The notes beneath the pieces were generated by a model. It saw only the letters and a list, made by a program, of their open reading frames with translations, made no database searches and had not been told where the DNA came from. Below are positions 870 through 22,185 of a stretch of DNA of 24,000 nt, one piece after another. The stretch spans positions 1 through 24,000 of the forward strand of contig CADDZL010000003.1 in the NCBI GenBank assembly GCA_902812335.1, written 5' to 3'. This stretch comes from Chloroflexota bacterium (GTDB lineage: Bacteria; Chloroflexota; Anaerolineae; DSLN01). Position 1 is the first letter of the stretch; every line of letters starts with the position of its first letter. Made by a program: the position numbers and the translations under genes.

Positions 870-1748
870 ATGCAGCGTCCTTCTACTTTCTCCATTGTGG
901 CCTACGACCCGCAGCGCGGTGAGTGGGGGGTGGCAGTCCAGTCCAAGTTTCTGGCGGCAGCGGCAGTCGTGTCATGGGCGCGGGCGGCTGCGGGCGCGGT
1001 GGCGACGCAATCGTATGCCAACACAAGTTATGGCCCGCGAGCGCTGGAGTGGATGGCGCAAGGGGTTTCGGCCGAGGAAGTGGTGGCCCGATTAGTTGCC
1101 GATGATGAGGGCCGTGCCCAGCGCCAGGTCGGCGTGGTGGATGCGCAGGGGCGCGCGGCAGCCTTCACTGGCGACGGCTGTTTGCCCTGGGCCGGCCATA
1201 TCATCGGGACACACTACACTTGTCAGGGCAATATCCTGGTAGATGAGCGGACTGTGCAGGCGATGGCCGAAACGTTTGAGGCAACCAGCGGCGAACTGGC
1301 CGAACGGCTGGTGGCAGCCCTGGCTGCAGGCCAGGCAGCCGGGGGCGACCGGCGCGGACAGCAATCCGCAGGGTTATTGGTCGTGCGCGAGAACGGCGGC
1401 TATGGCGGCTTTAATGACCGGTATATTGACCTGCGGGTGGATGATGACCCCCGGCCTATCGAGAAACTGCGCCAACTCCTTGACCTTCATCATCTGTATT
1501 TCGGCCAGACACGCCCCGAAGACTGGCTGCGGATCGAGGGTGACGTCGCCCGCGACCTGCAGCAGTTAGCAGCCAGGGCCGGGTTGTACAATGGCCCGGT
1601 CCATGGTGAATATGACGCGGCGACACGGGCCGCGCTGCGGGCGCTCGTGGGGATCGAGAACCTGGAAGAGCGCTTACGCGAAGAGGATGGGTACATTGAC
1701 GCCGTGGCATTGCAGGTGCTGCACGAGCGCGTGGAGCAGGCGACATGA
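870..1748 (+). CDS. DUF1028-family Ntn-hydrolase-like protein with C-terminal peptidoglycan-binding-like repeat
   Basis: ORF 810..1748. Start moved to ATG 870 (MQRPSTFSIVAYD) behind an AAGGAG RBS. STFSIVA...GVAVQSKF...ATQSYAN...TCQGNIL...GGDRRGQQSA matches my memory of DUF1028. The C-terminus GLYNGPVHGEYDAATRAALRALVG looks like a PG_binding-type helix repeat. Confidence 0.75.
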   Translation: MQRPSTFSIVAYDPQRGEWGVAVQSKFLAAAAVVSWARAAAGAVATQSYANTSYGPRALEWMAQGVSAEEVVARLVADDEGRAQRQVGVVDAQGRAAAFTGDGCLPWAGHIIGTHYTCQGNILVDERTVQAMAETFEATSGELAERLVAALAAGQAAGGDRRGQQSAGLLVVRENGGYGGFNDRYIDLRVDDDPRPIEKLRQLLDLHHLYFGQTRPEDWLRIEGDVARDLQQLAARAGLYNGPVHGEYDAATRAALRALVGIENLEERLREEDGYIDAVALQVLHERVEQAT

Positions 1749-3091
1749 TGCTGATCACACACGGCACAGTGTGTACCTGTGGGGCTGAGCCGCAGGTGCT
1801 TGATGATGGTGCAGTTTGCATCGAGGGCGATCGGATCGCCGCGGTCGGGCCGACCACGGAACTGGCTGTGCGCTATCCGCAGGCGGAACGATTAGATGCC
1901 GCCGGTCAATTGGTCATGCCCGGCGCGATCTGTGCCCATACCCACTTCTACGGCGCGTTTGCGCGGGGGATGAGCCTGCCGGGCGAACCGCCCCGCAACT
2001 TCGTGGAGATCCTCAGGAAGCTGTGGTGGCGCCTGGACCGGGCTTTGGATGAGGAAGCCATCCGCTACTCGGCGCTCGTCTCACTGGTTGACGCCATCCG
2101 CCATGGGACAACCACGCTGATGGACCACCATGCCAGTCCGAACCAGATAGACGGGTCGCTGGATGTTATCGCCGAGGCAGTAGAGCAAGCCGGCCTGCGG
2201 GTCTGCCTGTGCTACGAGGTGACCGACCGCAACGGTGATGAAGGGGCCAAGGCGGGCATTGCTGAGAATGTCCGCTTCATTCGCCGAGTGCGAACGACAG
2301 GCACTGAGCGATTGGCGGCTTCCTTCGGATTGCATGCGTCGCTGACACTGTCGGACCGGACACTAGAGCACGCCGTGGGGGAAGCGCAAGGGCTGGGATC
2401 GGGCTTTCACATTCATGTGGCGGAAGACCAGGCCGACCAGGACGATAGTCTGCGACAGCATGGCCTGCGGGTGGCGCAGCGGTTGGAACGACAGGGCGTG
2501 CTGGGCCAGATGACGCTGGCGGCGCACTGCGTCCACGTGGACCCGGCGGAGATCACTGTCCTGGCACGCACTGGGACAAAGGTCAGCCACCAGCCGCGCA
2601 GCAATATGAACAACGCCGTCGGCACTGCACCGGTTCAGGCGCTGCTTGACGCTGGGGTCCACGTCGGCCTGGGCAACGATGGGTTCTCTAACAATATGTT
2701 CTTGGAGATGAAGGCAGCTTACCTGGTGCACAAACTGGCCGTCCGAGACCCGCGTGCGATGGGCGGTGAGACGGTGATGCGGCTGGCATACGCGGAGAAT
2801 GCCCGCATCGCCAGCCTGTTCTGGCCGGGCACAGTAGGTTCGCTGGAACCAGGGGCTTATGCCGACATCGTGCTGTTGGACTACCGGCCCTATACGCCGC
2901 TGACAGCCGGCAACCTGCCCTGGCATGTTATCTTCGGCGTGGACGGCTCACATGTGACGACCACCATCTGCGCCGGGCGCTTGCTGATGAGAGACCGCCA
3001 ACTGCTGACGCTGGACGAGGAAGCTATTGCGGCCAATGCCCGTGAGGTCGCAGGCAAGGTGTGGCGACGCTTCGCCGAGAGCGGAGACTGA
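1745..3091 (+). CDS. ssnA: SsnA-type putative aminohydrolase (amidohydrolase superfamily, COG0402 clade)
   Basis: 448 aa. PGAICAHTHFYG (HxH), ILRKLWWRLDRALDEEAIRYS, LMDHHASPN, GFHIHVAEDQ, RSNMNNAVG and GLGNDGFS line up closely with E. coli SsnA as I recall it. ATGA overlap with the upstream gene. Confidence 0.85.
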   Translation: MMLITHGTVCTCGAEPQVLDDGAVCIEGDRIAAVGPTTELAVRYPQAERLDAAGQLVMPGAICAHTHFYGAFARGMSLPGEPPRNFVEILRKLWWRLDRALDEEAIRYSALVSLVDAIRHGTTTLMDHHASPNQIDGSLDVIAEAVEQAGLRVCLCYEVTDRNGDEGAKAGIAENVRFIRRVRTTGTERLAASFGLHASLTLSDRTLEHAVGEAQGLGSGFHIHVAEDQADQDDSLRQHGLRVAQRLERQGVLGQMTLAAHCVHVDPAEITVLARTGTKVSHQPRSNMNNAVGTAPVQALLDAGVHVGLGNDGFSNNMFLEMKAAYLVHKLAVRDPRAMGGETVMRLAYAENARIASLFWPGTVGSLEPGAYADIVLLDYRPYTPLTAGNLPWHVIFGVDGSHVTTTICAGRLLMRDRQLLTLDEEAIAANAREVAGKVWRRFAESGD

Positions 3092-3098
3092 AGAGATC

Positions 3099-7542: not shown

Positions 7543-7581
7543 TTTCTCTCCTCATTTGTAAGGCAGTCCAGGTGGGGGGAC

Positions 7582-7610
7582 TTGCTCCGCGCCTCTGTTC
7601 AGTGTACGAT
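7582..7610 (+). promoter_or_regulatory. Candidate internal sigma-70-like promoter (TTGCTC - 17 nt - TACGAT) ahead of the LLM/hydroxylase genes
   Basis: ttgctc at 7582-7587, exactly 17 nt, then tacgat at 7605-7610. It lies in the only sizeable intergenic gap (87 nt) of the array. A GGGAGGTGG RBS follows at about 7618-7626. Confidence 0.25.
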
Positions 7611-7629
7611 ATTGCCTTGGGAGGTGGCC

Positions 7630-8640
7630 ATGAGCGGAGACCGGGTGGCACTTTACTTGCAGGATGCTCATCCGATACGGGATGGGATGCGTTATGTGCA
7701 ATATGCCGAAGCGCGTGGCTTTGAAGCAGTCTGGCAGGCCGAGTCGCGCCTGGTGCGCGACGCCATCGTGCCGATGGCTGCCTTCGCTGCGGTCACAGAA
7801 CGGATCAAGGTCGGCTCCGGCGTGGTAAACAACTGGACGCGCAACCCTGCGCTTCTGGCCGCGACTTTTCTGACGCTCGACGATCTGGCCCCGAACCGGA
7901 TCATCTGTGGCATCGGCGCATGGTGGGACCCCCTGGCTGCCAATGTCGGCATTACCCGGTCCAGGCCGCTCACGGCCATGCGCGAGGTGGTCACGGTGGT
8001 GCGCGATCTGTTGGCGATGAAACGGGTAACCTTTCACGGCGAGTTCGTCCACGTTACCGATATCGAACTCGATGTGGTACACGGCCGGCGCGAGCCGCGC
8101 CATGTGCCCATTTACATCGGCGCGACCGGGATGCAGATGATGGAGCTGGCTGGTGAGATCGCCGATGGGGTCCTGCTCAATTACTGTGTGCCGCCGGAGT
8201 ATAATGATGCTGCGCTGGAGCATTTGGAAGCGGGAGCGCGACGGGCCGGGCGTTCACTCGATAGTCTCGACCGACCGCAGCTTGTGGTGTGCTCAGTGGA
8301 CTACGATCATGAGCGGGCGCTCGATGGCGCGCGCGAACTGCTGACGCAGTATCTGGCTCAGCAACCGCATATCGCCCAGGCCAGCGGTGTGAAGCCGGAG
8401 GTGGTGCAGGAGATTCGGGGCATCCTCGGCTGGCCGGCGACGAAGGAACAGATCCATCGGGCTATGCGGCTGGTGCCTGATGATCTGGTTGAGCGCATCA
8501 CGGCCAGCGGTACGCCAGCGGAGGCTAAGGCCAAGGTGCGCGAATATGTTGCCCACGGCTGTACCTGCCCGATTCTATACCCGCTGGGGGATGTACAACT
8601 GATGATTGATACCTTCGCCGAGGGCTATACCGCATCATGA
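7630..8640 (+). CDS. LLM-class (luciferase-like, Mer/FGD-related) F420-dependent oxidoreductase
   Basis: ORF 7582..8640. Start moved to ATG 7630 behind [54 protein letters not shown] and [14 protein letters not shown] match the TIM-barrel LLM family typical of F420 enzymes. Confidence 0.8.
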
Positions 8641-9527
8641 CTCTGCTGAATCTACGGGAATACCATCGCCCCGAGACGGTCGAGGAGGCGCTGGCGGCCC
8701 TCACCCCCGGTCCCTCTCCCAGAGCTTGGGGAGAGGGGAAGGTCGTCCCTCTGGCCGGTGGCACAGCATTGATAGGCACAGGCGGACCAGATGTCGGTGC
8801 GGTTGTAGATCTGGCTGAGCTTGACCTCGCCTGCGTTCGAGCGGACGCTGAGGCAGTCTACCTCGGCGCGATGACATCCTTGCAGATGCTGGTCGAAGCC
8901 TCGCAACTGGCCGGCCCGGCGTTAGGGATCGTCTCCCAGGCCGCGCGGCTGCAGGTCGGCCGCAACCTGCGTGTGGCGGCGACGCTGGGTGGGACGCTGG
9001 CTGTGACCGGCCCCGAAGACCCGCTTGGGGTGGTGTTATTGGCACTGGATGCCCAGGTCCAGGGGGCAGTGGGCAGTCAGCGGTGGGCGATGCCCCTGGA
9101 TGACTTTCTTGAGGAGCGCGGAAAGTATTTGGAACAGGGCGGCCTGATCACAGAAGTTATCATACCCGGAGGTGCAGCGGGGACCGTGGCTGCTTTTGCC
9201 CGCGTAGGGCGGACACCCGCCGACCGGCCGATTGTGTGTGCTGCTGCTCGCCTGGCAGTGATAGATAGGCTGTGCGCCGGGCCACGACTGGCTCTGGGCG
9301 GTGTGGCCGCCCGGCCGGTGCGTCTGCGCCAGGTGGAGGAGATGGTCTCGGGCAAGATGTTGGGGGATGACCTTTTGGCTGAGGCAGCTACGCTGGCCAG
9401 TGCCTCAGTGTCACCGCCTTCGGATTATCGGGGCAGCGCTGACTATCGGCGCGCCATGGCCGGCGTGCTGACTAAGCGCGTGCTGGCGCAGGCGGCTCAT
9501 CTGGTGCTGACCGCTGAGCCGGCATAA
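8637..9527 (+). CDS. Molybdenum-hydroxylase FAD-binding (medium) subunit, YgfM/CoxM-like
   Basis: 296 aa. [14 protein letters not shown]...[11 protein letters not shown]-terminus, ATLGGTLA, and C-terminal [17 protein letters not shown] (CO-dehydrogenase flavoprotein C-domain motif). ATGA overlap with the LLM gene. Confidence 0.85.
8712..8737. repeat. Perfect 9-bp GC-rich inverted repeat (ccctctccc / gggagaggg, 8-nt loop) inside the FAD-subunit CDS
   Basis: 8712-8720 ccctctccc, loop agagcttg, 8729-8737 gggagaggg. It encodes the PSPRAWGEG part of [13 protein letters not shown] in the variable loop before the AGGT motif. Confidence 0.7.
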
Positions 9528-9541
9528 TCGGAGCCAGGACG

Positions 9542-12500
9542 ATGGAGACAACGCTGACCGTCAACGATCGGCTGTATCGTCTTGACCTGCCGGTTTACAC
9601 ACGCCTGCTGGATGCGCTGCGCGGCCTGGGCTACTTCGGTGTGAAGCACGGCTGCGAGACGGGTGAGTGTGGTGCGTGTACGGTGTTGGTGGACGGCGTG
9701 CCGCGCAATAGTTGCGTCATGCTAGCGGCGCAGGCCGAGGGCCACGCCATCACGACAATTGAGGGGGTCGGCGGTCAGCAGGGGCGCGGCTGGCGTGGGA
9801 GTGGTGCGCTGCATCCGCTGCAACAGGCATTTGTCGAAACGGGCGCTATTCAGTGTGGCTTCTGTACGCCAGCGATGATCCTGGCAGCCAAGGCCCTGCT
9901 CGACCGACAACCGGCTCCCAGCGAAGATGAGGTGCGTGACGCGCTCTCCGGCGTTCTGTGCCGCTGCACCGGCTATTTGAAACCAGTGCAGGCTGTGCTC
10001 CGAGCCGCAGCAATCATGCGCGGCGAGGCCGTGCCGCCGTCCAATGGCGGTGAAGGGGAGCTGCCGCTGGCCAACCTGTTTGCCGCACCACAGTTCGGAG
10101 AGCGGGAAAGCCTGGGAGGTCTTGAAGGACTGCCAGGCCTGAGGAGCACGACGCAACTGAAGCCGGTGCCGACCATCGTCGTGGCGCCGCAGACCGAACC
10201 TTTCAGGGTTGTGGGCAAGCCGGAGAAGAAGGTGGATGCGCTCAAGTTGGTCCAGGGGAAGCCAGCCTTCACGGACGACTTTGAGATGCGGGGCATGCTT
10301 TATGCCAGGCTGTTGTTGTCCCCCCACGCCCACGCCCGCATCGTTCACATAGATGCCAGCCATGCCCGCGCCCTGCCTGGGGTTCACGCTGTGCTGACCT
10401 GCCAGGACCTGCCTCGCGTGGTCTTCACCACCGCCGGCCAGTCGGATCCGATCCCCGGCCCGATTGATACATTCAGCCTGGATCACAAGGTCCGCTTCGT
10501 CGGCGATCGGGTAGCGGCAGTAGCAGCCGAGACGCCGGAGATCGCGGAGCGGGCGCTGGGGTTGATCAAAGTCGAGTATGAGGTCCTGCCAGCTATCCTG
10601 AACCCCGAGGACGCGATGCAGCCGGGAGCGCCGGTGATTCATGACGAAGCGGAGTCCTGGAACATTGCCGACAAGAGCCGCAACCTGGCGGCGGTGGTCG
10701 ACTTCGAGGTTGGCGACGTAGAGGCGGGCCTCAGGCAGGCCGATTTTGTCTTCGAACAGACCTATCGTGTGCCTCAGGTGCAGCAGACGCCCATCGAGAC
10801 GCACGGTTGCATCACCTACTGGGACGAGGATGACCGGCTGGTGATCCGCACCAGCACGCAGGTCCCGTTCCACGTCAGGCGCATCCTGGCACCAGTGCTG
10901 GGGCTGCCGCCCAAGCGCATCCGCGTGGTCAAGCCACGCATCGGCGGCGGTTTCGGCTCCAAACAGGAGGTGATGATCGAGGACATCTGCGCCCATCTGA
11001 CCATTGTCACCGGCCGGCCGGTGCGGCTGGAGTACACGCGCGCCGAGGAGTTCATGTCCAGCCGGTCGCGTCACCCCATGATCATCAGGATGCGCACGGG
11101 CGTCAAGGCCGATGGCACCCTCGTTGCCAACGAGATGACGGTGCTGTCCAACACAGGCGCTTACGGCACGCACGCCATGACGGTCGCGGGTAACACCGGC
11201 CACAAGGCCATGGCACTATACAAAGCGCCGAATATCAAGTTCCATGCCGACATTGTTTACACCAACCTGCCGCCGGCTGGGGCCTTCCGGGGTTACGGTG
11301 TGCCGCAGGGCTTCGCGGCGCTCGAGCCGCACATGGAGTGGATCGCCCGCGAGTTGGGATTGGACCCGCTGGAGTTTCGGCTGAAAAACGCAGTGCGGGT
11401 CGGCGACGAGCACCCCCTGTCGCGGGCGTGGAGCGAAGGGCGCGAACCCAAACCGGAGTACATTCAGACCTGCGGGTTGGCTGATTGTGTGGCTCAGGGC
11501 GCGGCGGTAATGAAGTGGCATGAGCGCATGGGCAGCGCCGACTGGCGCACTGTCCCCGGCGCGCCCCATTTGCGACGCGGCCTGGGCGTGGCCTGCGTTA
11601 TGCAGGGGACTGCCATTCCCTACCTGGATATGGGCGCGGCCAGCATCAAGATCAATGATGACGGCTCATTCAACTTGTTGGTCGGCGCGACCGATCTGGG
11701 TACAGGTTCAGACACAGTGCTGGCCCAGATGGCCGCAGAGGTCCTGGGTTGCCCGCTGGAAGATATCATTGTGTACTCCTCCGACACCGACTTCACGCCC
11801 TTCGACAAAGGCGCGTATGCCTCCTCCACGACCTACATCTCCGGCGCGGCTGTAGTGCGGGCGGCGCAGCAAGTCGCCGAGCAGATCAAGGCGGTGGCGG
11901 CGCGGCTGCTGAGCCAACGGGGGGGGTCGGTTGCGGCCGCAGACCTGGTCCTGCACGACCGGGCAGTATGGGCACCGGACGGGCGCAGCGTGACCTTGCA
12001 GGAGGTGGCGCTGGAATCGTTACATCACACCGAGCAACACCAGATCATGGCGGTGGCTTCGTATGTGTCGCCGGAATCGCCGCCGCCCTTCGCAGCCCAA
12101 TTCGCCCAGGTGCTGGTGGACATCGAGACGGGCGAGGTGCGTGTGGAGAAGCTGGTTATGGCTGTGGACGCCGGGGTGATTGTCAACCCGGCGACGGCGT
12201 CGGGCCAGGTCGAGGGTGGGATGACGCAGGCGCTGGGCTATGCGGTGTGTGAGGAGATGTGCTACGACGAACGAGGGCGGCTTTTGACGACGCGCTTCGG
12301 CGACTATAAGGTCTTCCAGGCTGACGAGATGCCGGAACTGGAGACGATCTTTGTGGAGACTTACGAGCCATCACACCCGTTCGGCGTCAAAGCTGTCGCC
12401 GAGATCCCCATGGACGGCGTGGCACCAGCGGTGGTCAACGCCATTTATGATGCCGTGGGCGTGTGGGTGCGTGAGCTGCCAGCGACGCCGGAGCGCGTCT

Positions 12501-12553
12501 GGCGGGCACTGCGACAGAAGCAGACGCTGATGAACGCTCATGAACGCGGATAA
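9542..12553 (+). CDS. xdhD: Fused [2Fe-2S] small subunit + molybdopterin-binding large subunit of an XdhD-type molybdenum hydroxylase
   Basis: 1003 aa. The N-terminal 160 aa carry both 2Fe-2S motifs ([11 protein letters not shown]...C, QCGFCTP...CRCTGY). A linker of about 60 aa follows, then the Mo domain: [62 protein letters not shown] and KAVAEIP. The architecture and the GGGFGSKQ motif match E. coli XdhD as I recall it. GGAG RBS 8 nt upstream. Confidence 0.85.
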
Positions 12554-13349
12554 AATCTTTGAAGCCATTGTTGAGGCCGAACGCAAGGGCCAGCCGGTCG
12601 TGCTGGCGACCGTCGTGCGGGCACGCGGCTCGGTCCCGCGACACGAAGGGGCCAAGATGCTGGTCTATCCCGACGGCTCAATCTGGGGGAGCATTGGTGG
12701 CGGCGAGATGGAGTCGTGGGTCATCGGCGAGGCGCTGGCGGCGCTGCGAGAGGGCCGGCCCAGGTATGTAAACTACACGCTGGTGAATCCAGCAGAGGGT
12801 GACCCGGGCGTATGTGGGGGCGAGGTCGAGTTGTTTGTCGAGCCGCTGTTGGCAGCGCCGACGCTGCTGGTGGTGGGAGCCGGGCACGTGGGGCGGGCGG
12901 TGGCGTTTCTAGGGAAGTGGCTCGGTTTTCGCATAGTCATATATGATGACCGCCCTGACTACGTCACAGCCGACGCAGTCCCCTCCGCCGACGTGCGTCT
13001 CACCGGTCCGCTGGCTACGGCGCTCAAGGACATTGCCATCACGCCCGATACTTACATCGCGGCGGTGACCCGCTCTTATCCGATGGATGTGGAGCTATTG
13101 CGGCTGGTGCTGGATTCGCCGGCGGCTTATATTGGGCTGATCGGCAGCCGCCGGCGCGTGCAAGAGGTCTTCAAGGTATTGCGGAGTGAGGGCGTGCCTG
13201 AGGACAAGCTGATGCGGCTGCACGCGCCTATCGGCCTGGAATTGCACGCCGAGACGCCGGAGGAGATCGCCGTCAGCATTCTTGGCGAGATCATTATGTT
13301 GCGGCGGGGTGGATCGGGTAAGGCTATGAAGATGATGAATGGCACATGA
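12540..13349 (+). CDS. xdhC: XdhC/CoxI-family molybdenum cofactor insertion chaperone
   Basis: 269 aa. VLATVVRARGSVPRHEGAKMLV..GSIGGGEME, GGEVELFVEPL and a Rossmann segment LLVVGAGHVGRAV..IYDDRP. The start overlaps the xdhD-like 3' end by 14 nt. Confidence 0.85.
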   Translation: MNADKIFEAIVEAERKGQPVVLATVVRARGSVPRHEGAKMLVYPDGSIWGSIGGGEMESWVIGEALAALREGRPRYVNYTLVNPAEGDPGVCGGEVELFVEPLLAAPTLLVVGAGHVGRAVAFLGKWLGFRIVIYDDRPDYVTADAVPSADVRLTGPLATALKDIAITPDTYIAAVTRSYPMDVELLRLVLDSPAAYIGLIGSRRRVQEVFKVLRSEGVPEDKLMRLHAPIGLELHAETPEEIAVSILGEIIMLRRGGSGKAMKMMNGT

Positions 13350-14776
13350 CGATGTGGGATACCTACTACACACCGAGAACTGTTGACGAGGTCCTCGACC
13401 TGCTGGCGCGCTATGGGCGCGAAGCGCGCATTATCGCTGGCGGGACCGATCTTCTAATTGAGCTGGAACGCAAGGTCCGGCGAGTAGCCGTTCTGATTGA
13501 CATCACGCGCATTCCCGGCCTGGACGAGATCACCCTGGACGAGGCGGGCTGGATTCACCTGGGGCCGTTGGTGACGCACAACCGGGTAGTGAATTCACCC
13601 CTCATCGTCGAACGGGCCTTCCCGTTGGCGCAGGCGGCCTGGAAGGTCGGCGCGCCACAGATCCGTAATCGTGGCACCATCGCCGGCAATCTAATCACTG
13701 CCTCGCCCGCCAACGACACGATCACGCCGTTGTGGGCGTTGGACGCGCGGGTGACCTTGCTAAGCAGGCGCGGGCAGCGCACGTTGGGCTTCCCTGAGTT
13801 CTTCCAGGGAGTGCGTCGGACCGCGATGGCCGATGATGAGATGCTGATCGACATTGCCTTCCCGGCGATGGGCCGGCCTGAGCGGGGCACGTTCGGCAAG
13901 CTGACACTTCGGCAGGCGCAAGCTATCTCGGTGGTCAATATCGCTGTCATAGTAGAGTTGGATGATCACGTTGTGCGACGGGCCCGCCTGAGTTACGGCA
14001 GTGTCGCGCCGACGATTGTCCGGGCTGAGGAGGCCGAAAGATGGCTGGTTGGCAAGAGCCTGGATGACCCTGCGATTGCGCGTGCCGCGCAACTGGCGAT
14101 GGAAGCGGCGCGGCCGATTGATGACGTGCGGGTGACAGCCGAGTATCGCCGCGAAATGGTGGGTGTGATGACCGCGCGGGCCTTGCGAGCCTTGCGTGAT
14201 GGGGCTGAACGCGCCGATTGGCCCGATAGGCCGGTCATGCTTTGGGGGAAGACGGAGGGGCGCATCCGGCCCCTGCCGGGCCCAACGATGCGGCACGGCA
14301 CAGGCAGCGATGATGCCATCGAGACGCGCATCAATGGTCGGTCATATGTCGTCCGAGGGGCGAACGATAAGACGCTGCTGCGTATGCTGCGCGAGGATAT
14401 CGGATTGACGGGCACGAAGGAGGGTTGCGCTGAGGGTGAATGCGGTGCCTGTACGGTATTCCTTGACGGCATGGCAGTGATGGCATGTATGGTCGCCGCG
14501 CCCAAGGCGCATGGAGCCGAGATCACCACTGTGGAGGGGCTGGCGCAGGACGGAAAATTGCATCCGATCCAGCAGGCATTTATTGACGCGGGTGCGGTGC
14601 AGTGTGGCTATTGCACGCCGGGGTTTCTCATGGCCGGAGCAATGCTCCTGGCCGAACGGCCTCACCCGTCGCGTTGGGAGGCCGAGCAAAGCATCACGGG
14701 CAATCTGTGTCGCTGCACTGGCTACTATAGTATCCTGGCCGCGATTGAGCGGGCAGGCCGGACGGATCAGAGATAG
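13346..14776 (+). CDS. Fused FAD-binding (medium) + [2Fe-2S] (small) subunit of a second molybdenum hydroxylase
   Basis: 476 aa. Residues 1 to about 290 form the FAD domain (IIAGGTDLLIE, RNRGTIAGNL, VRVTAEYRREM). Residues from about 324 to 476 form the FeS domain ([26 protein letters not shown]). ATGA overlap with xdhC. Confidence 0.9.
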   Translation: MTMWDTYYTPRTVDEVLDLLARYGREARIIAGGTDLLIELERKVRRVAVLIDITRIPGLDEITLDEAGWIHLGPLVTHNRVVNSPLIVERAFPLAQAAWKVGAPQIRNRGTIAGNLITASPANDTITPLWALDARVTLLSRRGQRTLGFPEFFQGVRRTAMADDEMLIDIAFPAMGRPERGTFGKLTLRQAQAISVVNIAVIVELDDHVVRRARLSYGSVAPTIVRAEEAERWLVGKSLDDPAIARAAQLAMEAARPIDDVRVTAEYRREMVGVMTARALRALRDGAERADWPDRPVMLWGKTEGRIRPLPGPTMRHGTGSDDAIETRINGRSYVVRGANDKTLLRMLREDIGLTGTKEGCAEGECGACTVFLDGMAVMACMVAAPKAHGAEITTVEGLAQDGKLHPIQQAFIDAGAVQCGYCTPGFLMAGAMLLAERPHPSRWEAEQSITGNLCRCTGYYSILAAIERAGRTDQR

Positions 14777-14785
14777 GAGGCAGTT

Positions 14786-15073
14786 ATGGCTTTCCGACGC
14801 GCACCAGAACGCCCACGCCCCAAGCCCGATCCGGTGCGGCGGGCCTGTTTGGGCCTGGTCTATTTTGCGGTCCTGGCCGTCGTCGCTTACGGCCTGTTCA
14901 CGCTAATTGACAGCCGCGTGCAACTGCGGCAAGTGCTCGAACTGGGAAGCGAGATACCCGATGTGGTTGTGGCCGTTGTGGGATCGCTAGTCCTATTCGG
15001 TATCCTGCACTTGTTGGTTCTCATGGGGACCTCTATCGTTCGTGGAGGGAAAACGAATGGCACTCGGCCTTAG
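14786..15073 (+). CDS. Small hypothetical membrane protein (95 aa, basic N-terminus, two predicted TM helices)
   Basis: ATG 14786 lies 5 nt after a strong AGGAGG (14775-14780). Hydrophobic stretches [22 protein letters not shown] and [22 protein letters not shown]. Without this gene there would be a 280-nt hole in an otherwise gap-free operon. I recognise no family. Confidence 0.55.
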
Positions 15074-17255
15074 CCTGCCCCGCATTGACGCCCTGGGCAA
15101 AGTCACGGGCACAACGCCCTATCCCGGTGATTTGAACCTGCCGGGTATGCTGCACATGAAGATTTTGTTTGCCGGCCGGCCGCATGCCCGCATCCGCCGC
15201 CTCGACACGCACCGGGCAGAAGCCGTGCCTGGCGTTGTGGCCATACTCACGGCCAAGGATGTGCCCGTCAATGAGTATGGGCTGATTATTAATGACCAGC
15301 CCGTGTTGTGTGGACCTGGCAGCCGCAAGCAGGGCGCTGATGTCGTCCGCTTCATCGGTGATCAGGTGGCGCTGGTTGTGGCTGAGTCGGAGAAGGCGGC
15401 AGCGACCGCACGTGATTTGATCGAGGTAGACTACGATGATCTTCCTGTGGTCACCGATCCGGTTGTGGCGATGCGGCCGGACGCGCCGTTGCTCTTTCCG
15501 GAACTGGGCACGAATGTCCTCAAGCATTACCGTATCCGCAAAGGCGATATCGCTACCGGCTTTACCCAGGCTGATGTTGTCATCGAGAGCACCTACCGCA
15601 CGCCCTTTCAGGAGCATGCCTATCTACAGCCGGAGGCAGGCCTGGCCTACGTAGATGAGGCCGGGCGGGTGACCGTGGTAGTGGCCGGGCAGTGGACACA
15701 TGAGGACCAGGCACAGATTGCGCATGCGTTGGACCTGCCGGTGGATCAGGTGCGTGTGATCTATCCGGCTATCGGCGGCGCGTTCGGCGGGCGCGAGGAT
15801 ATGTCGGTGCAAATCGTGCTGGCGCTGGCAGCCTGGAAGCTGCGGCGCCCGGTCAAGATCGTGTGGAGCCGGGAGGAGTCCATCGTCGGCCATCACAAGC
15901 GCCACCCCATGGTGCTGCGTGCGCGCTGGGGGGCGACACGGGAGGGCAAAGTCGTCGCGGCAGAAGTAGAGGTCATTGCCGACGCCGGAGCGTATGCTTA
16001 CACCTCGACTAAAGTGCTGGGCAATACGACCCTGATGTGCACCGGGCCGTACGAAATCCCCAACGTGAAGGTAGACAGTTATGCCGTCTACACCAACAAT
16101 ATCCCCACCGGTGCCTTTCGAGGCTTTGGCGGTCCGCAGGGACTGTTTGCCGCCGAAACCCAGATGAACAAGCTGGCCGAAGCGCTGGATATGGACCCGG
16201 TTGAACTGCGGCAGCGCAACCTGTTGCGCGAAGGCAGCCTGCTCTCGGTCGGCACACCGCTGCCGCCAGGCGTGACCATCGGCCAGGTGGTGCAGGCAGC
16301 GGCGGAGGCTGGTTGGAACCTGCCCTCACCCCCGGCCACTCTCTCCAAGGCCGGCAAGAGGGGAGCAAGGGTAAAGGGTAAAGGCTTTGCCTGTGGTTTC
16401 AAGAACGTCGGCTTCAGCTTCGGCGCGCCTGAGCGTTGTTGGGCGACGGTGGAACTATACGGCGGGACCGAGATTGAGCAAGTGATTGTGCGCCACGCCG
16501 GGGCTGACGTCGGACAGGGAGCACATACGGCCATTGTCCAGATGACGGCTGAGGCTGCTGGCGTCTCTGTTGAGAAAGTGCGGTTGGTTGCCTCAGATAC
16601 GGCGGAGACAGGTGATTCAGGCAGTTCATCGGCGTCGCGCATGACCTTCATGGCGGGCAATGCCGTGCGGGGTGCGATGGAGGCGGCGCTGGCGAAGTGG
16701 CGCGATGAAGAAAGGCCCGCAGTAGCTACGTATGTGTACCGGGCGCCACCGACCACGCCTTTCGACCCGGAAACCGGCCATTCTGAACCCAACTTTGCCT
16801 ACGGCTACGTGGCGCAAGTGGCCGAAGTTGAGGTGGACACCGAGACCGGCCAGGTGCGGCTTGTCCGGGTCGTCTCTGCTCACGATGTTGGCCGGGCGGT
16901 CAATCCGCAACTGATCCAGGGTCAGATTGAGGGCGGGGTGGTTCAGGCGCAGGGCTACGCCCTCATGGAGAACCTGGTTGTGCGGGATGGCCGCATCCTC
17001 AACCCATACCTGAGCACCTATCTGATTCCTACAGTGTTGGATGTGCCGGAACGGGTTGAGTCTGTTATTTTGGAGTGCGCCGACCCACGTGGGCCCTGGG
17101 GGGTGCGCGGCATGGCCGAGATGCCCTTCCTGCCCTTAGCGCCTGCTGTCATCGCCGCAGTTCACGACGCGACCGGTGTGTGGTTCGACGCCATCCCCCT
17201 GACGCCTGAGCGAGTTCTGGCCGGTTTAAAGAGCCAGCGCTCAGCGAACGGCTGA
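15057..17255 (+). CDS. Molybdopterin-binding large subunit, xanthine-dehydrogenase-like (XdhA/PucD type)
   Basis: ORF 15042..17255. Start moved to ATG 15057, 6 nt after [35 protein letters not shown] (Glu aligned with bovine XDH E802), [10 protein letters not shown] (R880 equivalent) and GMAEMP (E1261 equivalent). Confidence 0.9.
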
Positions 17256-17274: not shown

Positions 17275-18108
17275 ATGTTGTCTCCTGAGGCAGCTTTCGA
17301 AGGCGCGCTTATTCTGATTAAGGGCGCGGGCGATCTGGCCTCCGGCGTCGCCTACCGGCTGCACCGCGCCGGTTTCCCGCTAGTGATGACCGAATTACCT
17401 GAGCCGTTGGTCGTGCGCCGCGCCGCGGCGTTTGCCGAGGCGGTGTACTCTGCTCAGACGAACGTCGAGGGGCTGGTAGCGCGCAAGGCAGCGAATGTGG
17501 CAGAAGCGCTTGCGCTGGCGCGGCAAGGCATGATCCCGGTGCTGGTGGACCCGACGACAACCTGTCTGGGGGCGCTGGCACCGCTAGTCTTGGTGGACGC
17601 GATCATGGCCAAGCGCAACACCGGCACGCGGATAACCGATGCACCCCTGGTGGTCGCATTGGGGCCGGGTTTCGTTGCGGGCGTGGATTGCCATGCAGTG
17701 ATCGAGACCAATCGGGGGCACTGGCTAGGGCGGGTCTACTGGAACGGGTCGGCTGAGCCGGACACAGGCATTGCCGCCCCAGTGGTGGGCTACACTGCTG
17801 AGCGCGTGCTGCGAGCCCCCTGCGACGGGCCAATCGAGACCTTCTGCCAGATCGGCGACGCCGTCCGGCAGGGGCAGTTCGTGGCAGCGGTGGCCGGGCA
17901 AGGGGTAGCAGCGCCATTTGACGGGGTGGTGCGCGGGCTGATTCACCCCGGGCTTATGGTGCGAGCCGGGTTAAAGATCGGTGATGTGGACCCCAGGGCA
18001 CAGCGTGAGCACTGCTTCACCATCTCGGACAAGTCTTTAGCAGTAGGGGGCGGCGTGCTGGAGGCGGTATTGGCGTCGCCGGCGGTGAGGGCGCGGCTGT
18101 GCCGCTGA
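17275..18108 (+). CDS. yqeB: YqeB/EF2563-family selenium-dependent molybdenum hydroxylase system protein
   Basis: 277 aa. ILIKGAGDLASGVAYRLHRAGFPLVMTELPEPLVVRRAAAFAEAVY matches my memory of the TIGR03309 family N-terminus. It sits directly downstream of a hydroxylase and upstream of yqeC. No clear RBS, so the start is uncertain. Confidence 0.7.
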   Translation: MLSPEAAFEGALILIKGAGDLASGVAYRLHRAGFPLVMTELPEPLVVRRAAAFAEAVYSAQTNVEGLVARKAANVAEALALARQGMIPVLVDPTTTCLGALAPLVLVDAIMAKRNTGTRITDAPLVVALGPGFVAGVDCHAVIETNRGHWLGRVYWNGSAEPDTGIAAPVVGYTAERVLRAPCDGPIETFCQIGDAVRQGQFVAAVAGQGVAAPFDGVVRGLIHPGLMVRAGLKIGDVDPRAQREHCFTISDKSLAVGGGVLEAVLASPAVRARLCR

Positions 18109-18112
18109 AGCC

Positions 18113-19477
18113 ATGCAGCTTCGCCGGGCTCTTCGCATAGTCAAAGGTGACATCATCGCCTTCGTCGGCGCTGGCGGCAAGACGACCGCAATATTCCGAT
18201 TGGCAGATGAGATGGCCGCCGATAGTTGCCGCGTTGTCATCACCACCACGACGCACATGTACCCTCCAACTGGCGGTGACCTGCCGGTTATCACAGGTGA
18301 CGGGGATGAGTTGCTCCAACGTGTGCGGCAACGGCTGAATCAGGTTAGCCGCGTAGTCGTGGCATCCACCTATGTAGACACGCCCGAAGGCACAAAGCTG
18401 GCCGGTCTCAGGCCGGAATTTGTCGCGTTGCTCAGCGGAGGCACACAGGCGGATGTCGTCTTAGTCGAGGCAGACGGTTCCCGTGGGCGGCCTCTCAAGG
18501 CCCCGGCAGCGTACGAGCCGGTCATCCCGCCGGCTGCGACGCTCGTTGTAGCAGTGGCCGGACTCAGCGTTCTCGGCCGGCCGCTCGGCGGTGAAACCGT
18601 TCACCGGTCGGAACGGGTGACTGCCCTCGCAGGTATTTCTGACGGAGAGATGATCACACCTGAGCATTTGGCGAATGTCCTCGTTCATCCGGAAGGAGGG
18701 CTGAAGGGCATACCGGAAGGAGCGCGTGTTGTGGCCTTACTCAACCAGGCAGACGATCCGGCGCGCCTCGATGCAGGCCGGCAGGTGGCAAACCGGCTCT
18801 TGCGCCAGGGGCGATTCGCGGCGGTAGGTATCAGCGCGCTGGGGGGCCTCATCAGCGATGGGGTGCGCGAGGTGCACGAACGGGTTGCCGCTATTGTCCT
18901 GGCGGCCGGTGCAGGACGGCGCTTTGGTGGTGCCAAGCAACTGGCGCTCTGGCGGGGTCGGCCGCTGCTGGTGCACGTGGTTGAGGCGGTGCTTGCCAGC
19001 CAGGTGACTGAGGTGGTGATCGTTACGGGTTATGAGAGTGAGAGGGTAGCAGCGGCTGTGTCGAGTTGGGGTCCACATCTTCGCATAGTCATGAATCCCA
19101 ACTGGTCCAACGGACAAAGCACATCCGTGCACACCGGACTGAGCGCCCTGCCTACAAACATAGGAGCTGCCCTCTTTGTCCTGGCGGACCAGCCACGCCT
19201 GTCACCCCAGGTCATCAACGCGATCCTGCAATGTCGCCGCGAGACGCTCGCGCCCATCGTTGCCCCAACCTATGGGGAACAGCGGGGTAATCCCGTGCTC
19301 TTCGACCGCGATCTATTTCCCGAGTTGCTGGGGACGACCGGTGACGTTGGCGGGAGACTGTTGATCGAGAGATATGCGGAGCAGGTGGCCTGGCTGCCCT
19401 TCGCCGTTGAACTGGCCCCGGGGGACGTGGACCGGCCGGAGGACCTGCAGGAGGATAACGCGGACGGCGGGCCATAA
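18113..19477 (+). CDS. Fusion protein: YqeC-family selenium cofactor accessory protein (aa 1 to about 245) + MocA-like molybdenum cofactor cytidylyltransferase (aa from about 247 to 454)
   Basis: The N-terminal part has IIAFVGAGGKTT (P-loop), VVITTTTHM and VLVEADGSRGRPLKAPAAYEPVIP, as in TIGR03172/YqeC. The C-terminal part has AAIVLAAGAGRRFGGAKQL, VVIVTGY, NPNWSNGQSTSV, LADQP and GNPVLFDR, as in MobA/MocA-type NTP transferases. Confidence 0.8.
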   Translation: MQLRRALRIVKGDIIAFVGAGGKTTAIFRLADEMAADSCRVVITTTTHMYPPTGGDLPVITGDGDELLQRVRQRLNQVSRVVVASTYVDTPEGTKLAGLRPEFVALLSGGTQADVVLVEADGSRGRPLKAPAAYEPVIPPAATLVVAVAGLSVLGRPLGGETVHRSERVTALAGISDGEMITPEHLANVLVHPEGGLKGIPEGARVVALLNQADDPARLDAGRQVANRLLRQGRFAAVGISALGGLISDGVREVHERVAAIVLAAGAGRRFGGAKQLALWRGRPLLVHVVEAVLASQVTEVVIVTGYESERVAAAVSSWGPHLRIVMNPNWSNGQSTSVHTGLSALPTNIGAALFVLADQPRLSPQVINAILQCRRETLAPIVAPTYGEQRGNPVLFDRDLFPELLGTTGDVGGRLLIERYAEQVAWLPFAVELAPGDVDRPEDLQEDNADGGP

Positions 19478-19633: not shown

Positions 19634-20719
19634 TCACTCTGCGATAGCCTGGCGCAGAGCTTCTAATCCCCGTTCGACCAAACTCATGTTGGCCTGGCTG
19701 CCCATGTGGCCGATGCGGAAGACCTTCCCCTCCAGGGATCCGAGGCTGCCTCCCATGACCACGCCCCGCTGACGCAGGCGGGCGTCCAGCTCTTGCCAGG
19801 TCAGGCCAGCAGGGACCTTGAGCGCCGTCACCGTCGGCGAGCAGATAGCTTCATCTACCGGAAACAGCTCCAGGCCAAATTCGCGAGCGCGGTCGCGTGT
19901 AGCCTGTGCCACGGCGCGGTGGCGGCTGAAAACATTGTCCAGCCCCTCGGTCAGAACCATCCTGCACGCGACGTGTAAGGCGGCCAGCGAAGCCCAACTT
20001 GGCGTGTAGGGGAACCAGCGGCGTTCGACCGCGTCACGGAAGGGCAGCAGGGCATCGTAGCCCGGGTAGTTGACTTTGGCGATTATCTCCCAGGCCCGGT
20101 CGCTTACCGCCACGATCGCCAGGTCTGGAAAACACGAGAGAGCTTTCTGTGACCCCACCAGACACAGGTCGATTCCCCAGTCATCCACCCGAACGGGCAC
20201 ACCTGCGGCGCTGGAGACCGCATCTACATAATAGAGCGGCACGCTGTACTGGCGGACGAGTGCCCCGATCTCTGCTGCCGGGTTGAGTGTGCCGGAAGGG
20301 GTTTCGCAGTGGACAAGTGTGACCATCTTGGGCCGGAAGCGCCGGATGGCCTCCTCAACCCGGGCCGGGTCAGCTACGCTGTCGTAGCCGAATTCGACAA
20401 ACTCGACCCTGGCGCCGATCTGGGCGGCCATCTCGCCGATGCCGTGGCCGAATACACCGGTGCTGATGGCTAACACTCGATCACCGCGAGCAACACAGCT
20501 CTTGAGCGCACCCCACAGCGCAGCCATACCCTCGCCCGTCATGATGGCCATCTTGTTACCGGTGCCGAGGATCGCGCCCAGGTGAGCCTGGACGCGGGTG
20601 TACTCCACGCCGTACTCCGGCTCCAGATCGGCCGAGCCGTAGTCGGTGAGATAGGCTTCTCGCACCGCCTGTGGCACCCGAGTCGGGCCGGGCACCAATG
20701 GCACGTCGTAGGTGATCAC
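19634..20719 (-). CDS. Class-V PLP aminotransferase (serine-pyruvate / alanine-glyoxylate / PucG-like family)
   Basis: 361 aa. GTG start at 20719, 5 nt after GGAGG. PLVPGPTRVP N-terminus, HCETPSGT and LVGSQKALSC (PLP lysine in the SQK motif) are typical of the AGXT family. Confidence 0.8.
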   Translation of the reverse strand: MITYDVPLVPGPTRVPQAVREAYLTDYGSADLEPEYGVEYTRVQAHLGAILGTGNKMAIMTGEGMAALWGALKSCVARGDRVLAISTGVFGHGIGEMAAQIGARVEFVEFGYDSVADPARVEEAIRRFRPKMVTLVHCETPSGTLNPAAEIGALVRQYSVPLYYVDAVSSAAGVPVRVDDWGIDLCLVGSQKALSCFPDLAIVAVSDRAWEIIAKVNYPGYDALLPFRDAVERRWFPYTPSWASLAALHVACRMVLTEGLDNVFSRHRAVAQATRDRAREFGLELFPVDEAICSPTVTALKVPAGLTWQELDARLRQRGVVMGGSLGSLEGKVFRIGHMGSQANMSLVERGLEALRQAIAE

Positions 20720-20811
20720 CGTAACCTCCGCTCTCCTTATCAGCAGCCTGCTAACTGTTGAAGATGCTGGCGTCTGATTCTAACATGCAATAGCAGCGGG
20801 GGCCAACAGAA

Positions 20812-20820
20812 TGCTATAAT
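20812..20820 (+). promoter_or_regulatory. Candidate extended -10 promoter (TGCTATAAT) for the MtaD-like gene
   Basis: tgctataat at 20812-20820, 39 nt upstream of ATG 20860, in a 140-nt divergent intergenic region. AGGAG RBS at 20849-20853. Confidence 0.4.
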
Positions 20821-20859
20821 GCGGGGCAGACCAGAAAACTTGGCCGACAGGAGTGGAAT

Positions 20860-22185
20860 ATGGGCAGCATCCTAATCCGCAATGTGGATGTGGTCACGCT
20901 GGATGACGCCGGCACCATCGTCCACGACGCTGACATCGTTATTGAAGGGGGAATCATTCGAAGCATTGGTGAGACTCCGCCAGTTTTTGCCGCAGCCGAG
21001 ACGATTGACGGCCGCGGTCACGTTGCCATGCCCGGCTTCTTCAATGCCCACTGCCACGCGCCCATGACCTTCGAGCGGGGCTGGGCTGAGGACCTGCCCC
21101 TGGACCGCTGGTTCAATGAGCGCATTTGGGTGGCTGAGTCCGCCTTGACCGAGGAGGATGTCGCCTGGGGTGCAGCGCTGGCGGCCTGCGAGATGATCCG
21201 TTCCGGTACAATCGCTTTCGCCGACCATTACTTTTACATGGACCGCGTAGCCGAGGTGGTCGAGCAAAGCGGTCTGAAAGCAGCATTAACCTGGTGTGTC
21301 TTCGGCATCGGTCCGGCAGCCGAGATCGGGCCCGGCTTGGAAGGGACGATTGAGTTTGTCCGGCGGTGGCAGGGAGGAGCCCAGGGGCGTATTCGCACGC
21401 TTCTAGGCCCCCATTCACCTTATGTCTGCCCACCGGAGTTCCTGGCCGAAGTCGCGGCACGGGCGAAGGCGCTGGGCGTGGGCGTGCATCTACACGTCTC
21501 TGAATCGCAGGAGCAGATGGATAACTCACGGCAGCAGCATGGGCTGACGCCCGTGGCCCTTCTGGAACGGCTGGGCATCTTCGACGTACCCTGCATCGCC
21601 GCCCACTGCATTTACCTGAGCGATGACGACTGCCGCATCCTGGCTGAGCGCGGTGTCAACGTTGTCCAATGCCCCAAAACGCATCTGAAGCTGGCGATGG
21701 GCACGACGCCAGTGCCGGACCTGCTGGCTCGGGGTGTCAATGTCGCATTGGGCAGCGATGGCCCTGGCTCAAACAACGACATGGATATGTTCGAGGTAGG
21801 CCGGCTGGCAGCGCTGGTGCAGAAACACGAACGGCACGACGCGACGGTCTTGCCCGGCGACACTACGCTGCGGCTGGCGACGCGTAACGGCGCGCGGGCG
21901 ATGGGCTTCAATGAGAGCGGCGTCCTGGCTCCTGGCCGGCCTGCCGACCTGATTCTGGTGGACTTCGACCAGCCGCACCTGCGCCCGCGGCACGATCTGA
22001 TCGCTAACCTGGTGTACGCTGCCAGAGGAGCCGATGTGACCCATGTCATCGTGGACGGACACCTGCTCATGCGCGACCGCCAGCTTCTAACGCTGGATGA
22101 GGAGCGCATCCTGGCGGAGGCGGAGCGACGCGCGCTGCGCATGGTCAACCAACCCCTGCGCATCGTCAGGGAGTATCAAGGGTAA
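20860..22185 (+). CDS. mtaD: MtaD-like amidohydrolase (5-methylthioadenosine/S-adenosylhomocysteine deaminase family; purine or nucleoside deaminase)
   Basis: 441 aa. PGFFNAHCHAPMTFERGWAEDLPLDRWF, HLHVSESQ, AAHCIYL and LGSDGPGSNNDMDM are COG0402/MtaD hallmarks. Substrate is not determinable from sequence alone. Confidence 0.75.
   Translation: MGSILIRNVDVVTLDDAGTIVHDADIVIEGGIIRSIGETPPVFAAAETIDGRGHVAMPGFFNAHCHAPMTFERGWAEDLPLDRWFNERIWVAESALTEEDVAWGAALAACEMIRSGTIAFADHYFYMDRVAEVVEQSGLKAALTWCVFGIGPAAEIGPGLEGTIEFVRRWQGGAQGRIRTLLGPHSPYVCPPEFLAEVAARAKALGVGVHLHVSESQEQMDNSRQQHGLTPVALLERLGIFDVPCIAAHCIYLSDDDCRILAERGVNVVQCPKTHLKLAMGTTPVPDLLARGVNVALGSDGPGSNNDMDMFEVGRLAALVQKHERHDATVLPGDTTLRLATRNGARAMGFNESGVLAPGRPADLILVDFDQPHLRPRHDLIANLVYAARGADVTHVIVDGHLLMRDRQLLTLDEERILAEAERRALRMVNQPLRIVREYQG

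Follow-up and report, generated by a model that had tools for sequence, protein, structure and literature searches.

A fused YqeC-MocA protein beside YqeB at a molybdenum hydroxylase locus of a Chloroflexota bacterium

The yqeB and yqeC-mocA genes

A stretch of 24 000 nucleotides from a Chloroflexota bacterium (Anaerolineae, DSLN01; assembly GCA_902812335.1, contig CADDZL010000003.1, positions 1 to 24 000 of the forward strand, here called the window) carries two adjacent genes that are the subject of this report, yqeB and a fusion of yqeC with mocA. The yqeB gene (17275..18108, + strand) encodes a standalone protein of 277 aa that is not fused to an XdhC domain, and is followed on the same strand by yqeC-mocA (18113..19477), which encodes a single polypeptide of 454 aa. 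The junction between them reads TGA, agcc, ATG, a gap of 4 nt. The product of the first gene scored 361.4 bits against TIGR03309, exceeding the equivalog cut-off of 220, and was 49% identical to residues 259–524 of Escherichia coli YqeB (266 aa), which form the C-terminal, YqeB-specific half of that protein. No Pfam family matched this open reading frame (ORF), and a search of the PDB with it gave no meaningful relative.

The N-terminal part of the fusion (aa 1–246, 18113..18850) is a P-loop nucleoside triphosphatase (NTPase) domain of the YqeC family. It matched PF19842 over aa 15–167 (E 4.7e-42, 144 bits against a cut-off of 27.6) and TIGR03172 over aa 14–231 (202 bits against a cut-off of 73), and shared 37% identity with E. 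coli YqeC across 199 aa (E 3e-38), the motifs GAGGKT(S/T) and EADGSRG.PLKAP aligning in both proteins. The C-terminal part (aa 255–448, 18875..19456) was assigned to a MocA-type, MobA-like nucleotidyltransferase domain by PF12804 (MobA-like NTP transferase, aa 260–423, E 1e-39, 137 bits), by Foldseek and by motif alignment. The two are joined by an inter-domain linker of approximately aa 241–256 (18833..18880), located from a dip in the predicted local distance difference test (pLDDT) score and from column frequencies.

An earlier note, made from the letters of this DNA, had described a 454 aa ORF with a YqeC-like and a MocA/MobA-like domain, a domain boundary at about aa 247 and a YqeB-family gene 4 nt upstream. 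The Pfam and NCBIfam profile scores, the position of the short linker, and the TIGR03309 score together with the junction sequence agreed with it on these points, and hidden Markov model scoring of the N-terminal domain, a check that it had named, placed that domain above the curated cut-offs of both YqeC models. The motifs that it had listed, GAGGKTT, EADGSRGRPLKAP, LAAGAGRRFG and LADQP, were all found and are invariant or near-invariant in an alignment of 58 homologues.

Authenticity and distribution of the fusion

The homologues of the fused protein were drawn from a collection of 5.8 billion proteins, of which the best 120 matches were examined. Both Pfam domains were present in 120/120, at 43–90% identity and with lengths of ∼430–500 aa. 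One of these, a 454 aa protein with 90% identity, lies in a fully syntenic metagenome contig, and a fusion protein with 64% identity is encoded on a syntenic contig from an assembly deposited at NCBI. The full-length AlphaFold2 model of the fusion had a pLDDT of 94 and a predicted TM (pTM) score of 0.92, the pLDDT falling to 74 in the block 241–250; the linker holds the near-invariant residues E253 and R257, as judged from column frequencies in the 58 homologues. The pTM score of the model suggests that the two domains may be held in a fixed arrangement by a short conserved linker.

The possibility that the fusion was created by a sequencing frameshift or by the loss of a stop codon in the assembly can be dismissed as practically nil. 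Nothing was found in its favour, and an origin by frameshift or misassembly is ruled out by the homologues from independent assemblies, all 120 of which keep the two-domain architecture. The 90%-identical protein of the same length, the fusions in 44 species-level genomes described below, the conserved residues within the linker and the confident two-domain model all stand against it as well. The YqeC-MocA fusion is real, conserved and recurrent.

A scan of GTDB with one genome per species identified at least 586 YqeC loci, of which the best 80 were analysed; the species of the window was not one of these representatives, among which the closest match of its fusion was 52% identical. The fusion was present in 44 of the best 80 loci. 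Most of the 44 belong to Chloroflexota, together with five from Acidobacteriota, two from Desulfatiglans, one from Clostridia and one from Moorellaceae. An exhaustive HMMER search gave 5134 clusters of YqeC (50% identity) at E ≤ 1e-10, and a MocA domain followed YqeC in 67 of the best 150 cluster representatives. The survey of fusion frequency that had been proposed beforehand therefore returned a common architecture. On a rough neighbour-joining tree of the YqeC domain, parsimony required at least 10 changes between the fused and the unfused state, and fusion or fission has therefore been recurrent.

The fused homologues of Chloroflexota (including Anaerolineae), Acidobacteriota and other groups have the same architecture, length and motifs as the window protein, with no difference in kind, and those closest to it are syntenic. 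Some carry the name ‘putative selenium-dependent hydroxylase accessory protein YqeC’ (NCBI) and others that of ‘molybdenum cofactor cytidylyltransferase’ (NCBI, JGI). No discussion of a YqeC-MocA fusion was found in those papers on YqeC and YqeB that were consulted, nor by a broader search of terms. The window protein is one more member of a widespread and automatically annotated architecture and is not a new kind of system.

Genomic partners of YqeC

Linkage was counted in the 44 loci that have 8 kb or more of sequence on each side (full flanks), and features were scored within 10 kb of yqeC. A MocA domain, fused or separate, was found in 39/44 of these loci, YqeB in 24/44, a molybdenum subunit of the xanthine oxidase (XO) family in 18/44 and SelD in 0/44. 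Comparison of the MocA and YqeB counts identifies MocA as the tightest, and therefore the primary, genomic partner of YqeC, and YqeB is a frequent third member beside the two. Where yqeC and mocA are unfused, a separate mocA was found within 10 kb in 22 of 36 loci, and in 15 of the 20 with full flanks; it lay immediately downstream of yqeC in about 12 unfused loci, with a spacing that ranged from a short overlap to ∼25 nt. The neighbourhood link between yqeC and ygfJ (mocA) has been in print since 2008 (PMC2276186). All three families were joined in one YqeB-YqeC-MocA triple fusion of 726 aa (P0208, L087:123-2303, on an NCBI contig of a metagenome-assembled genome, GCA_041579715.1), the YqeB part of which is 57% identical to YqeB of the window.

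These data bear on the proposal of the earlier note that YqeC acts directly on the cytidylylated molybdenum cofactor, molybdopterin cytosine dinucleotide (MCD), during maturation. The idea of a physical cooperation of YqeC with MocA and with the synthesis of MCD draws support from the fusions in 44 of 80 loci, from the position of mocA downstream when unfused, from the recurrent changes of state and from the triple fusion. The Rosetta-stone argument itself adds only incrementally, because the fusion is common and automatically named and the yqeC-mocA link was published in 2008.

The same counts bear on a different explanation, in which YqeC is a selenium-independent accessory of MocA, as MobB is to MobA, that is, a dispensable nucleotide-binding adaptor for the synthesis or delivery of the dinucleotide cofactor. 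The apparent link with selenium might then have arisen only because selenium-dependent hydroxylases are MCD enzymes. We consider both the adaptor role and this account of the selenium link possible, if somewhat doubtful. MocA being the most frequent partner is in keeping with an adaptor, as are the recurrence of fusion and fission and the finding that 10 of the 24 fused loci with full flanks had no YqeB within 10 kb. The presence of YqeB next to the fusion here and near yqeC in more than half of the loci, and its inclusion in the triple fusion, are harder to reconcile with such a role.

Other arrangements of these domains were observed. XdhC, YqeB, YqeC and MocA domains are paired differently by lineage, as XdhC-YqeB in E. 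coli (L084:4615-6240) and as YqeC-MocA in the window. Two cluster representatives (P0200 and P0245, ∼466 aa) carry a class-I S-adenosylmethionine-dependent methyltransferase domain N-terminal to YqeC and are without MocA. Two loci from Thermodesulfobacteriota (L043, 9371-10780; L083, ending at 10756) have YqeC ORFs that resemble these methyltransferase-YqeC fusions in length and layout.

Fold and motifs of the YqeC domain

Modelled alone, the YqeC domain had a pLDDT of 94.6. Its best Foldseek matches were the SIMIBI NTPases MipZ, FleN, FtsY and MeaB, at probabilities of 0.97–1.0 and template modelling (TM) scores of 0.37–0.46. The domain has no close structural relative in the PDB. A sequence search of the PDB with it found nothing, and a YqeC profile run against the PDB gave a borderline match only, to the P-loop of FtsY (E 0.013). 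The conserved motifs are a Walker A sequence VGAGGKTT (aa 18–25), E119-A-D-G122, K129-A-P-A, H164-R165 and N211-(K/Q)-x-(D/E). Residues G19, G21, G22, K23, E119, D121, G122, K129, P131, H164, R165 and N211 were invariant in the 58 homologues, and no column of the domain reached 30% Cys in that alignment, which showed no conserved Cys or Sec. The ExDG motif resembles a Walker B and the N211 motif resembles the G4 motif of GTPases.

The model of YqeC suggests a divergent P-loop NTPase of the SIMIBI type. NTPases of this class that deliver cofactors or metallocentres (MeaB; the MinD/ParA-like MipZ and FleN; FtsY) appear to share with YqeC the P-loop fold class and the Walker B-like and G4-like motifs, but with TM scores this low no family membership is claimed.

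An adaptor role would recall MobB, and homology between the two was sought. The Pfam MobB family (PF03205) did not match YqeC at E ≤ 10, hhalign gave a probability of 6% confined to the P-loop, and the top 50 Foldseek matches did not include MobB. Homology to MobB is thus rejected and the analogy is functional alone, which counts against the adaptor explanation; the lack of a conserved Cys in YqeC is in its favour. MobB is not known to be essential. Dispensability may be a trait that the two share, the deletion of yqeC in Clostridioides difficile being silent (PMC11448449), and this too would suit an adaptor, although a double yqeB yqeC mutant of that organism was only partly rescued by yqeB (PMC11448449). 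The fusions of MobA with MobB known from Geobacter (PMC2700814) lend the explanation a precedent, in which a MobA-fold nucleotidyltransferase is likewise paired or fused with a small P-loop protein. In MobA-MobB, however, the order of the domains is reversed relative to YqeC-MocA, and guanosine triphosphate (GTP) is used by MobA rather than the cytidine triphosphate (CTP) presumed here for MocA.

Specificity of the MocA-type domain

The best Foldseek matches of the C-terminal domain were Rv0371c, Q97W15 of S. solfataricus (3d5n) and E. coli MobA (1e5k), with E-values from 5e-12 to 3e-10 and target TM scores of 0.76–0.92, and the domain thus has a MobA-like NTP transferase fold. The transferase motifs are L263-A-A-G266, R270, G272, K275, G334-Q-S-T-S338 and D359-Q-P361. 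In alignment, LAAG falls with TAAG and GQSTS with GLLTS of E. coli MocA, and both differ from the LAGG and GPLAG of MobA; LAAG was present in 57 of the 58 homologues. These motif regions reportedly set the specificity for cytosine or guanine, the cytosine type having xAAG in place of LAGG and G-x-x-T-S in place of G-P-L-A-G.

A MobA-like transferase of another specificity, for example one that uses GTP to form molybdopterin guanine dinucleotide (MGD), or one with another nucleotide or acceptor, was weighed against an MCD synthase and is held to be quite unlikely. The domain scored 154.7 bits against the MocA model TIGR03310, below the equivalog cut-off of 186.45, and it was only 23% identical to E. 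coli MocA, against 29% to E. coli MobA in a three-way alignment. The occurrence of a second MocA-like gene or domain beside the fusion in some relatives would also suit a divergent specificity. However, MocA was by far the best NCBIfam model, the MobA models reaching 37–40 bits, and MocA-type LAAG and GQSTS motifs were kept in 57/58 homologues. The neighbouring enzymes, moreover, are of the XO family, which uses MCD or molybdopterin (MPT) and not bis-MGD (PMC2997495). The prediction that the MocA domain forms MCD is well supported.

The additional MocA-like sequences take two forms. In loci from Anaerolineae and Chloroflexia (L030, L035, L044, L057, L063, L072 and L074) the fusion is immediately followed by a second, standalone MocA-like gene, and in P0220 a single protein has the order YqeC-MocA-MocA. 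The second gene or domain suggests two transferase activities or specificities.

The surrounding genes

The locus sits among genes for XdhC and for molybdenum hydroxylases. Two hydroxylases of the xanthine dehydrogenase (XDH) family, both likely clients, are encoded upstream on the + strand. Hydroxylase 1 (8637..12553; Pfam Fer2_2, Ald_Xan_dh_C and MoCoBD_1/2) comprises a YgfM-like flavin adenine dinucleotide (FAD) subunit (8637-9527) and a fused [2Fe-2S] and molybdenum subunit of 1003 aa (9542-12553), which is XdhD-like and 37% identical to E. coli XdhD over nearly its full length; all of its matches to NCBIfam equivalog models were below cut-off. It is followed by xdhC (12540..13349, +), which belongs to the same maturation set as yqeB and yqeC-mocA and was assigned to the XdhC family of molybdenum cofactor (Moco) chaperones by PF02625 and PF13478, with NF045664 and TIGR02964 below their cut-offs. 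Hydroxylase 2 (13346..17255), which was identified by its Pfam domains and is PucD/XdhA-like, comprises an FAD and [2Fe-2S] subunit (13346-14776) and a molybdenum subunit of 737 aa (15042-17255; NCBIfam pucD, 610 bits against a cut-off of 784). Enzymes of the XO family receive MCD that is made by MocA and handled by chaperones of the XdhC type (PMC2997495).

A small ORF of 95 aa without a family match (14786-15073) lies between the subunits of hydroxylase 2 and overlaps the start of the molybdenum subunit; a gene is called at this position in two relatives (L002:6143-6430 and L001:6719-6943). The same relatives carry a gene of the BrnT toxin/CopG antitoxin type between xdhC and hydroxylase 2 (L001:4425-4836 and L002:4149-4568), and none is present there in the window.

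Further upstream, ssnA (1745..3091, +) encodes an aminohydrolase that scored 546 bits against NF005540 (cut-off 444) and 526 against TIGR03314 (cut-off 455) and is 36% identical to E. coli SsnA. In other organisms ssnA travels with the yqeB/yqeC/mocA island. Directly upstream of it, and overlapping it, is a gene for a DUF1028 protein whose C-terminal domain is peptidoglycan-binding (810-1748). This pairing is kept in the relatives L088 and L089 at 83–85% identity, and 249 relatives of the DUF1028 protein were found in metagenomes.

A complete set of coenzyme F420 genes occupies 3027-8640, between ssnA and the hydroxylase genes, and consists of npdG, cofE, the C-terminal domain of FbiB, cofD and cofC, together with an F420-dependent oxidoreductase of the luciferase-like monooxygenase (LLM) class; its arrangement is syntenic in two relatives (L088:12263-17187 and L089:12246-20136). 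No ygfK homologue is present in the window. Because the F420 set is present and a ygfK homologue is missing, an F420H2-dependent reductase might replace YgfK in a purine pathway like that of 2,8-dioxopurine.

Synteny around yqeC-mocA is kept in relatives. Just downstream, the region 19634-22185 encodes a class-V aminotransferase of the AGXT/pyridoxamine-pyruvate type (19634-20719, − strand) and an amidohydrolase of the TRZ/ATZ family, both of which are kept in L001 and L002 and would fit a locus for the catabolism of purines or N-heterocycles. The aminotransferase was considered as a sulfur or selenium donor of the NifS/selenocysteine-lyase type and was rejected, as it scored as a pyridoxamine-pyruvate or aspartate-glyoxylate type and reached only E ∼1e-5 with models of cysteine desulfurases. 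Scans of the window with Rfam and for tRNAs gave no match at all, and so neither a Moco riboswitch nor a tRNA-Sec.

The island of E. coli includes YqeB (b2875), YqeC (b2876) and MocA/YgfJ (b2877), the same three families as the window, and both loci also have ssnA, an xdhD-like hydroxylase and a ygfM-like FAD subunit. The earlier note had described yqeC and mocA of E. coli as adjacent but separate genes, and the gene order of the K-12 strain confirms them as neighbours that are divergently transcribed; yqeB and yqeC lie on one strand there and mocA on the other, whereas yqeC and mocA of the window form one polypeptide. The YqeB protein of E. coli (541 aa) also contains an XdhC-like domain fused to it, while xdhC and yqeB of the window are separate genes 4 kb apart. 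The MocA proteins share only the low identity given above, and the E. coli island has ygfK where the window has none and carries F420 genes instead.

Evidence for and against selenium

In comparative genomics, YqeB, YqeC and SsnA serve to mark selenium-dependent molybdenum hydroxylases (PMC2276186). The signature that is accepted is the joint presence of SelD, YqeB and YqeC (PMC9312934; PMC5029168), and YqeB or YqeC alone may serve processes unrelated to selenium (PMC5029168), a point that also favours the adaptor explanation. Two of the three signature genes, yqeB and yqeC, are adjacent in the window. The third was sought with a validated SelD query (620 bits against the NCBIfam SelD model). 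It revealed no selD in the window, none at up to 10 kb from yqeC in 83 related loci, none in 42 kb of one syntenic relative and none in 80 metagenome loci anchored on the DUF1028 gene, among which two syntenic relatives were covered for 10 kb upstream of ssnA. A single weak match to the AIRS family, in L157, proved unrelated.

Following the earlier note, the locus can be read as a selenium-specific assembly line, in which YqeC would act on MCD so that the labile selenium is installed or activated as a ligand, together with YqeB and with selenophosphate from SelD, at least one hydroxylase being selenium-dependent. This is a conceivable account of the locus that we are inclined to doubt. The marker trio YqeB, YqeC and SsnA is complete here, each member above its NCBIfam cut-offs; the locus mirrors the yqeB-yqeC/mocA-ygfK-ssnA-ygfM-xdhD island of E. 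coli; and the triple fusion ties YqeB to YqeC-MocA. In C. difficile the use of purines requires YqeB and SelD (PMC11448449), and in C. sporogenes 2,8-dioxopurine dehydrogenase (DOPDH) as well as XDH is SelD-dependent (bioRxiv 10.1101/2025.04.24.650524).

Set against these points, selD was missing from the window, from the neighbourhood of yqeC in the 83 loci and from the 42 kb of the syntenic relative, and the marker is reliable only where SelD, YqeB and YqeC occur jointly (PMC9312934). YqeC has no conserved Cys or Sec, and its linkage to YqeB is less frequent than that to MocA. The deletion of yqeB in C. difficile behaves like selD mutants, whereas the deletion of yqeC has no phenotype; in the double mutant yqeB alone gave only partial complementation (PMC11448449). 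Neither molybdenum subunit reached the cut-offs of the models for selenium-dependent enzymes: the window hydroxylases scored 496 and 494 bits against TIGR03311 (cut-off 830) and one scored 709 bits against TIGR03313 (cut-off 1102). In the literature no sequence signature is reported to separate the selenium from the sulfur dependence of hydroxylases (bioRxiv 10.1101/2025.04.24.650524).

The prediction that the fusion implies a selenium-dependent hydroxylase was not supported, as the fusion alone does not predict one and the published criteria call for SelD, YqeB and YqeC. Selenium dependence of the hydroxylases is plausible. A selenium-independent role of YqeC is equally compatible with the data, because the linkage to MocA is tighter than that to YqeB, YqeC has no conserved Cys and the deletion of yqeC is without phenotype. 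The fusion is more informative on MCD than on selenium.

Discussion

On balance we favour an interpretation in which yqeB and yqeC-mocA mature the cofactor, MCD, for the two adjacent XDH-family hydroxylases, with a hand-off coupled to an NTPase; it is held as probable by a modest degree. The gene pair would form the tail of an operon-like row that serves both hydroxylases. The MocA-type domain would convert Mo-molybdopterin and CTP to MCD, and the YqeC domain, packed against it, may bind or hydrolyse a nucleotide and so couple the formation of MCD to its release, or to a protected hand-off of the fragile cofactor. YqeB and XdhC would be the recipients. They would provide the cofactor with its terminal chalcogen ligand, which would be selenium in an organism that makes selenophosphate and sulfur in any other, and would load the apo-hydroxylases. 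From the fold class, the fusion and the linkage we infer that YqeC may be an active NTPase with a part in the hand-off, and any involvement of selenium is likewise presumed.

Several observations weigh against this cofactor hand-off. The fold matches of YqeC are weak by TM score, and the searches for homology to its obvious analogue, MobB, were negative. The transferase domain scores below the equivalog cut-off of the MocA model and is distant from E. coli MocA, and its preference for CTP would be read from two short motifs whose meaning is reported rather than established here. To our knowledge no biochemical activity has been described for any YqeC. The role proposed for YqeC may also be dispensable or redundant, because the deletion of yqeC in C. 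difficile is without phenotype (PMC11448449).

A stronger version, which we think unlikely, is that YqeB, YqeC and MocA constitute one physical assembly line, in which the cofactor, still bound to the MCD synthase, would receive its chalcogen (selenium where SelD exists) and would afterwards be passed to XdhC and the hydroxylase. The P-loop of YqeC would then act as a nucleotide-driven gate.

The survey narrows the search for the way in which molybdenum hydroxylases acquire their labile selenium ligand. The fusion adds evidence that YqeC and MocA work together and is no proof of the use of selenium in this organism. Given the many fused homologues in the databases, nothing is added by the window protein itself. 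Modestly useful leads for work on the maturation of Moco and of the selenium cofactor are the MocA-first linkage, the recurrence of the fusion, the triple fusion, the fold resembling that of SIMIBI NTPases and the lack of a conserved Cys. As an experimental target, the MocA-first coupling, the missing Cys and the delivery-type appearance of the P-loop domain favour a nucleotide-dependent hand-off of MCD over selenium chemistry in YqeC. The natural YqeC-MocA fusions, like the triple fusion, offer single polypeptides that would be convenient for biochemical and structural studies. If the assembly line described above were true, this lineage, which is apparently environmental and F420-rich, would be a user of selenium-dependent molybdenum hydroxylases outside the host-associated anaerobes in which the trait is known, and it would have a purine pathway with an F420-dependent reductase in the place of YgfK.

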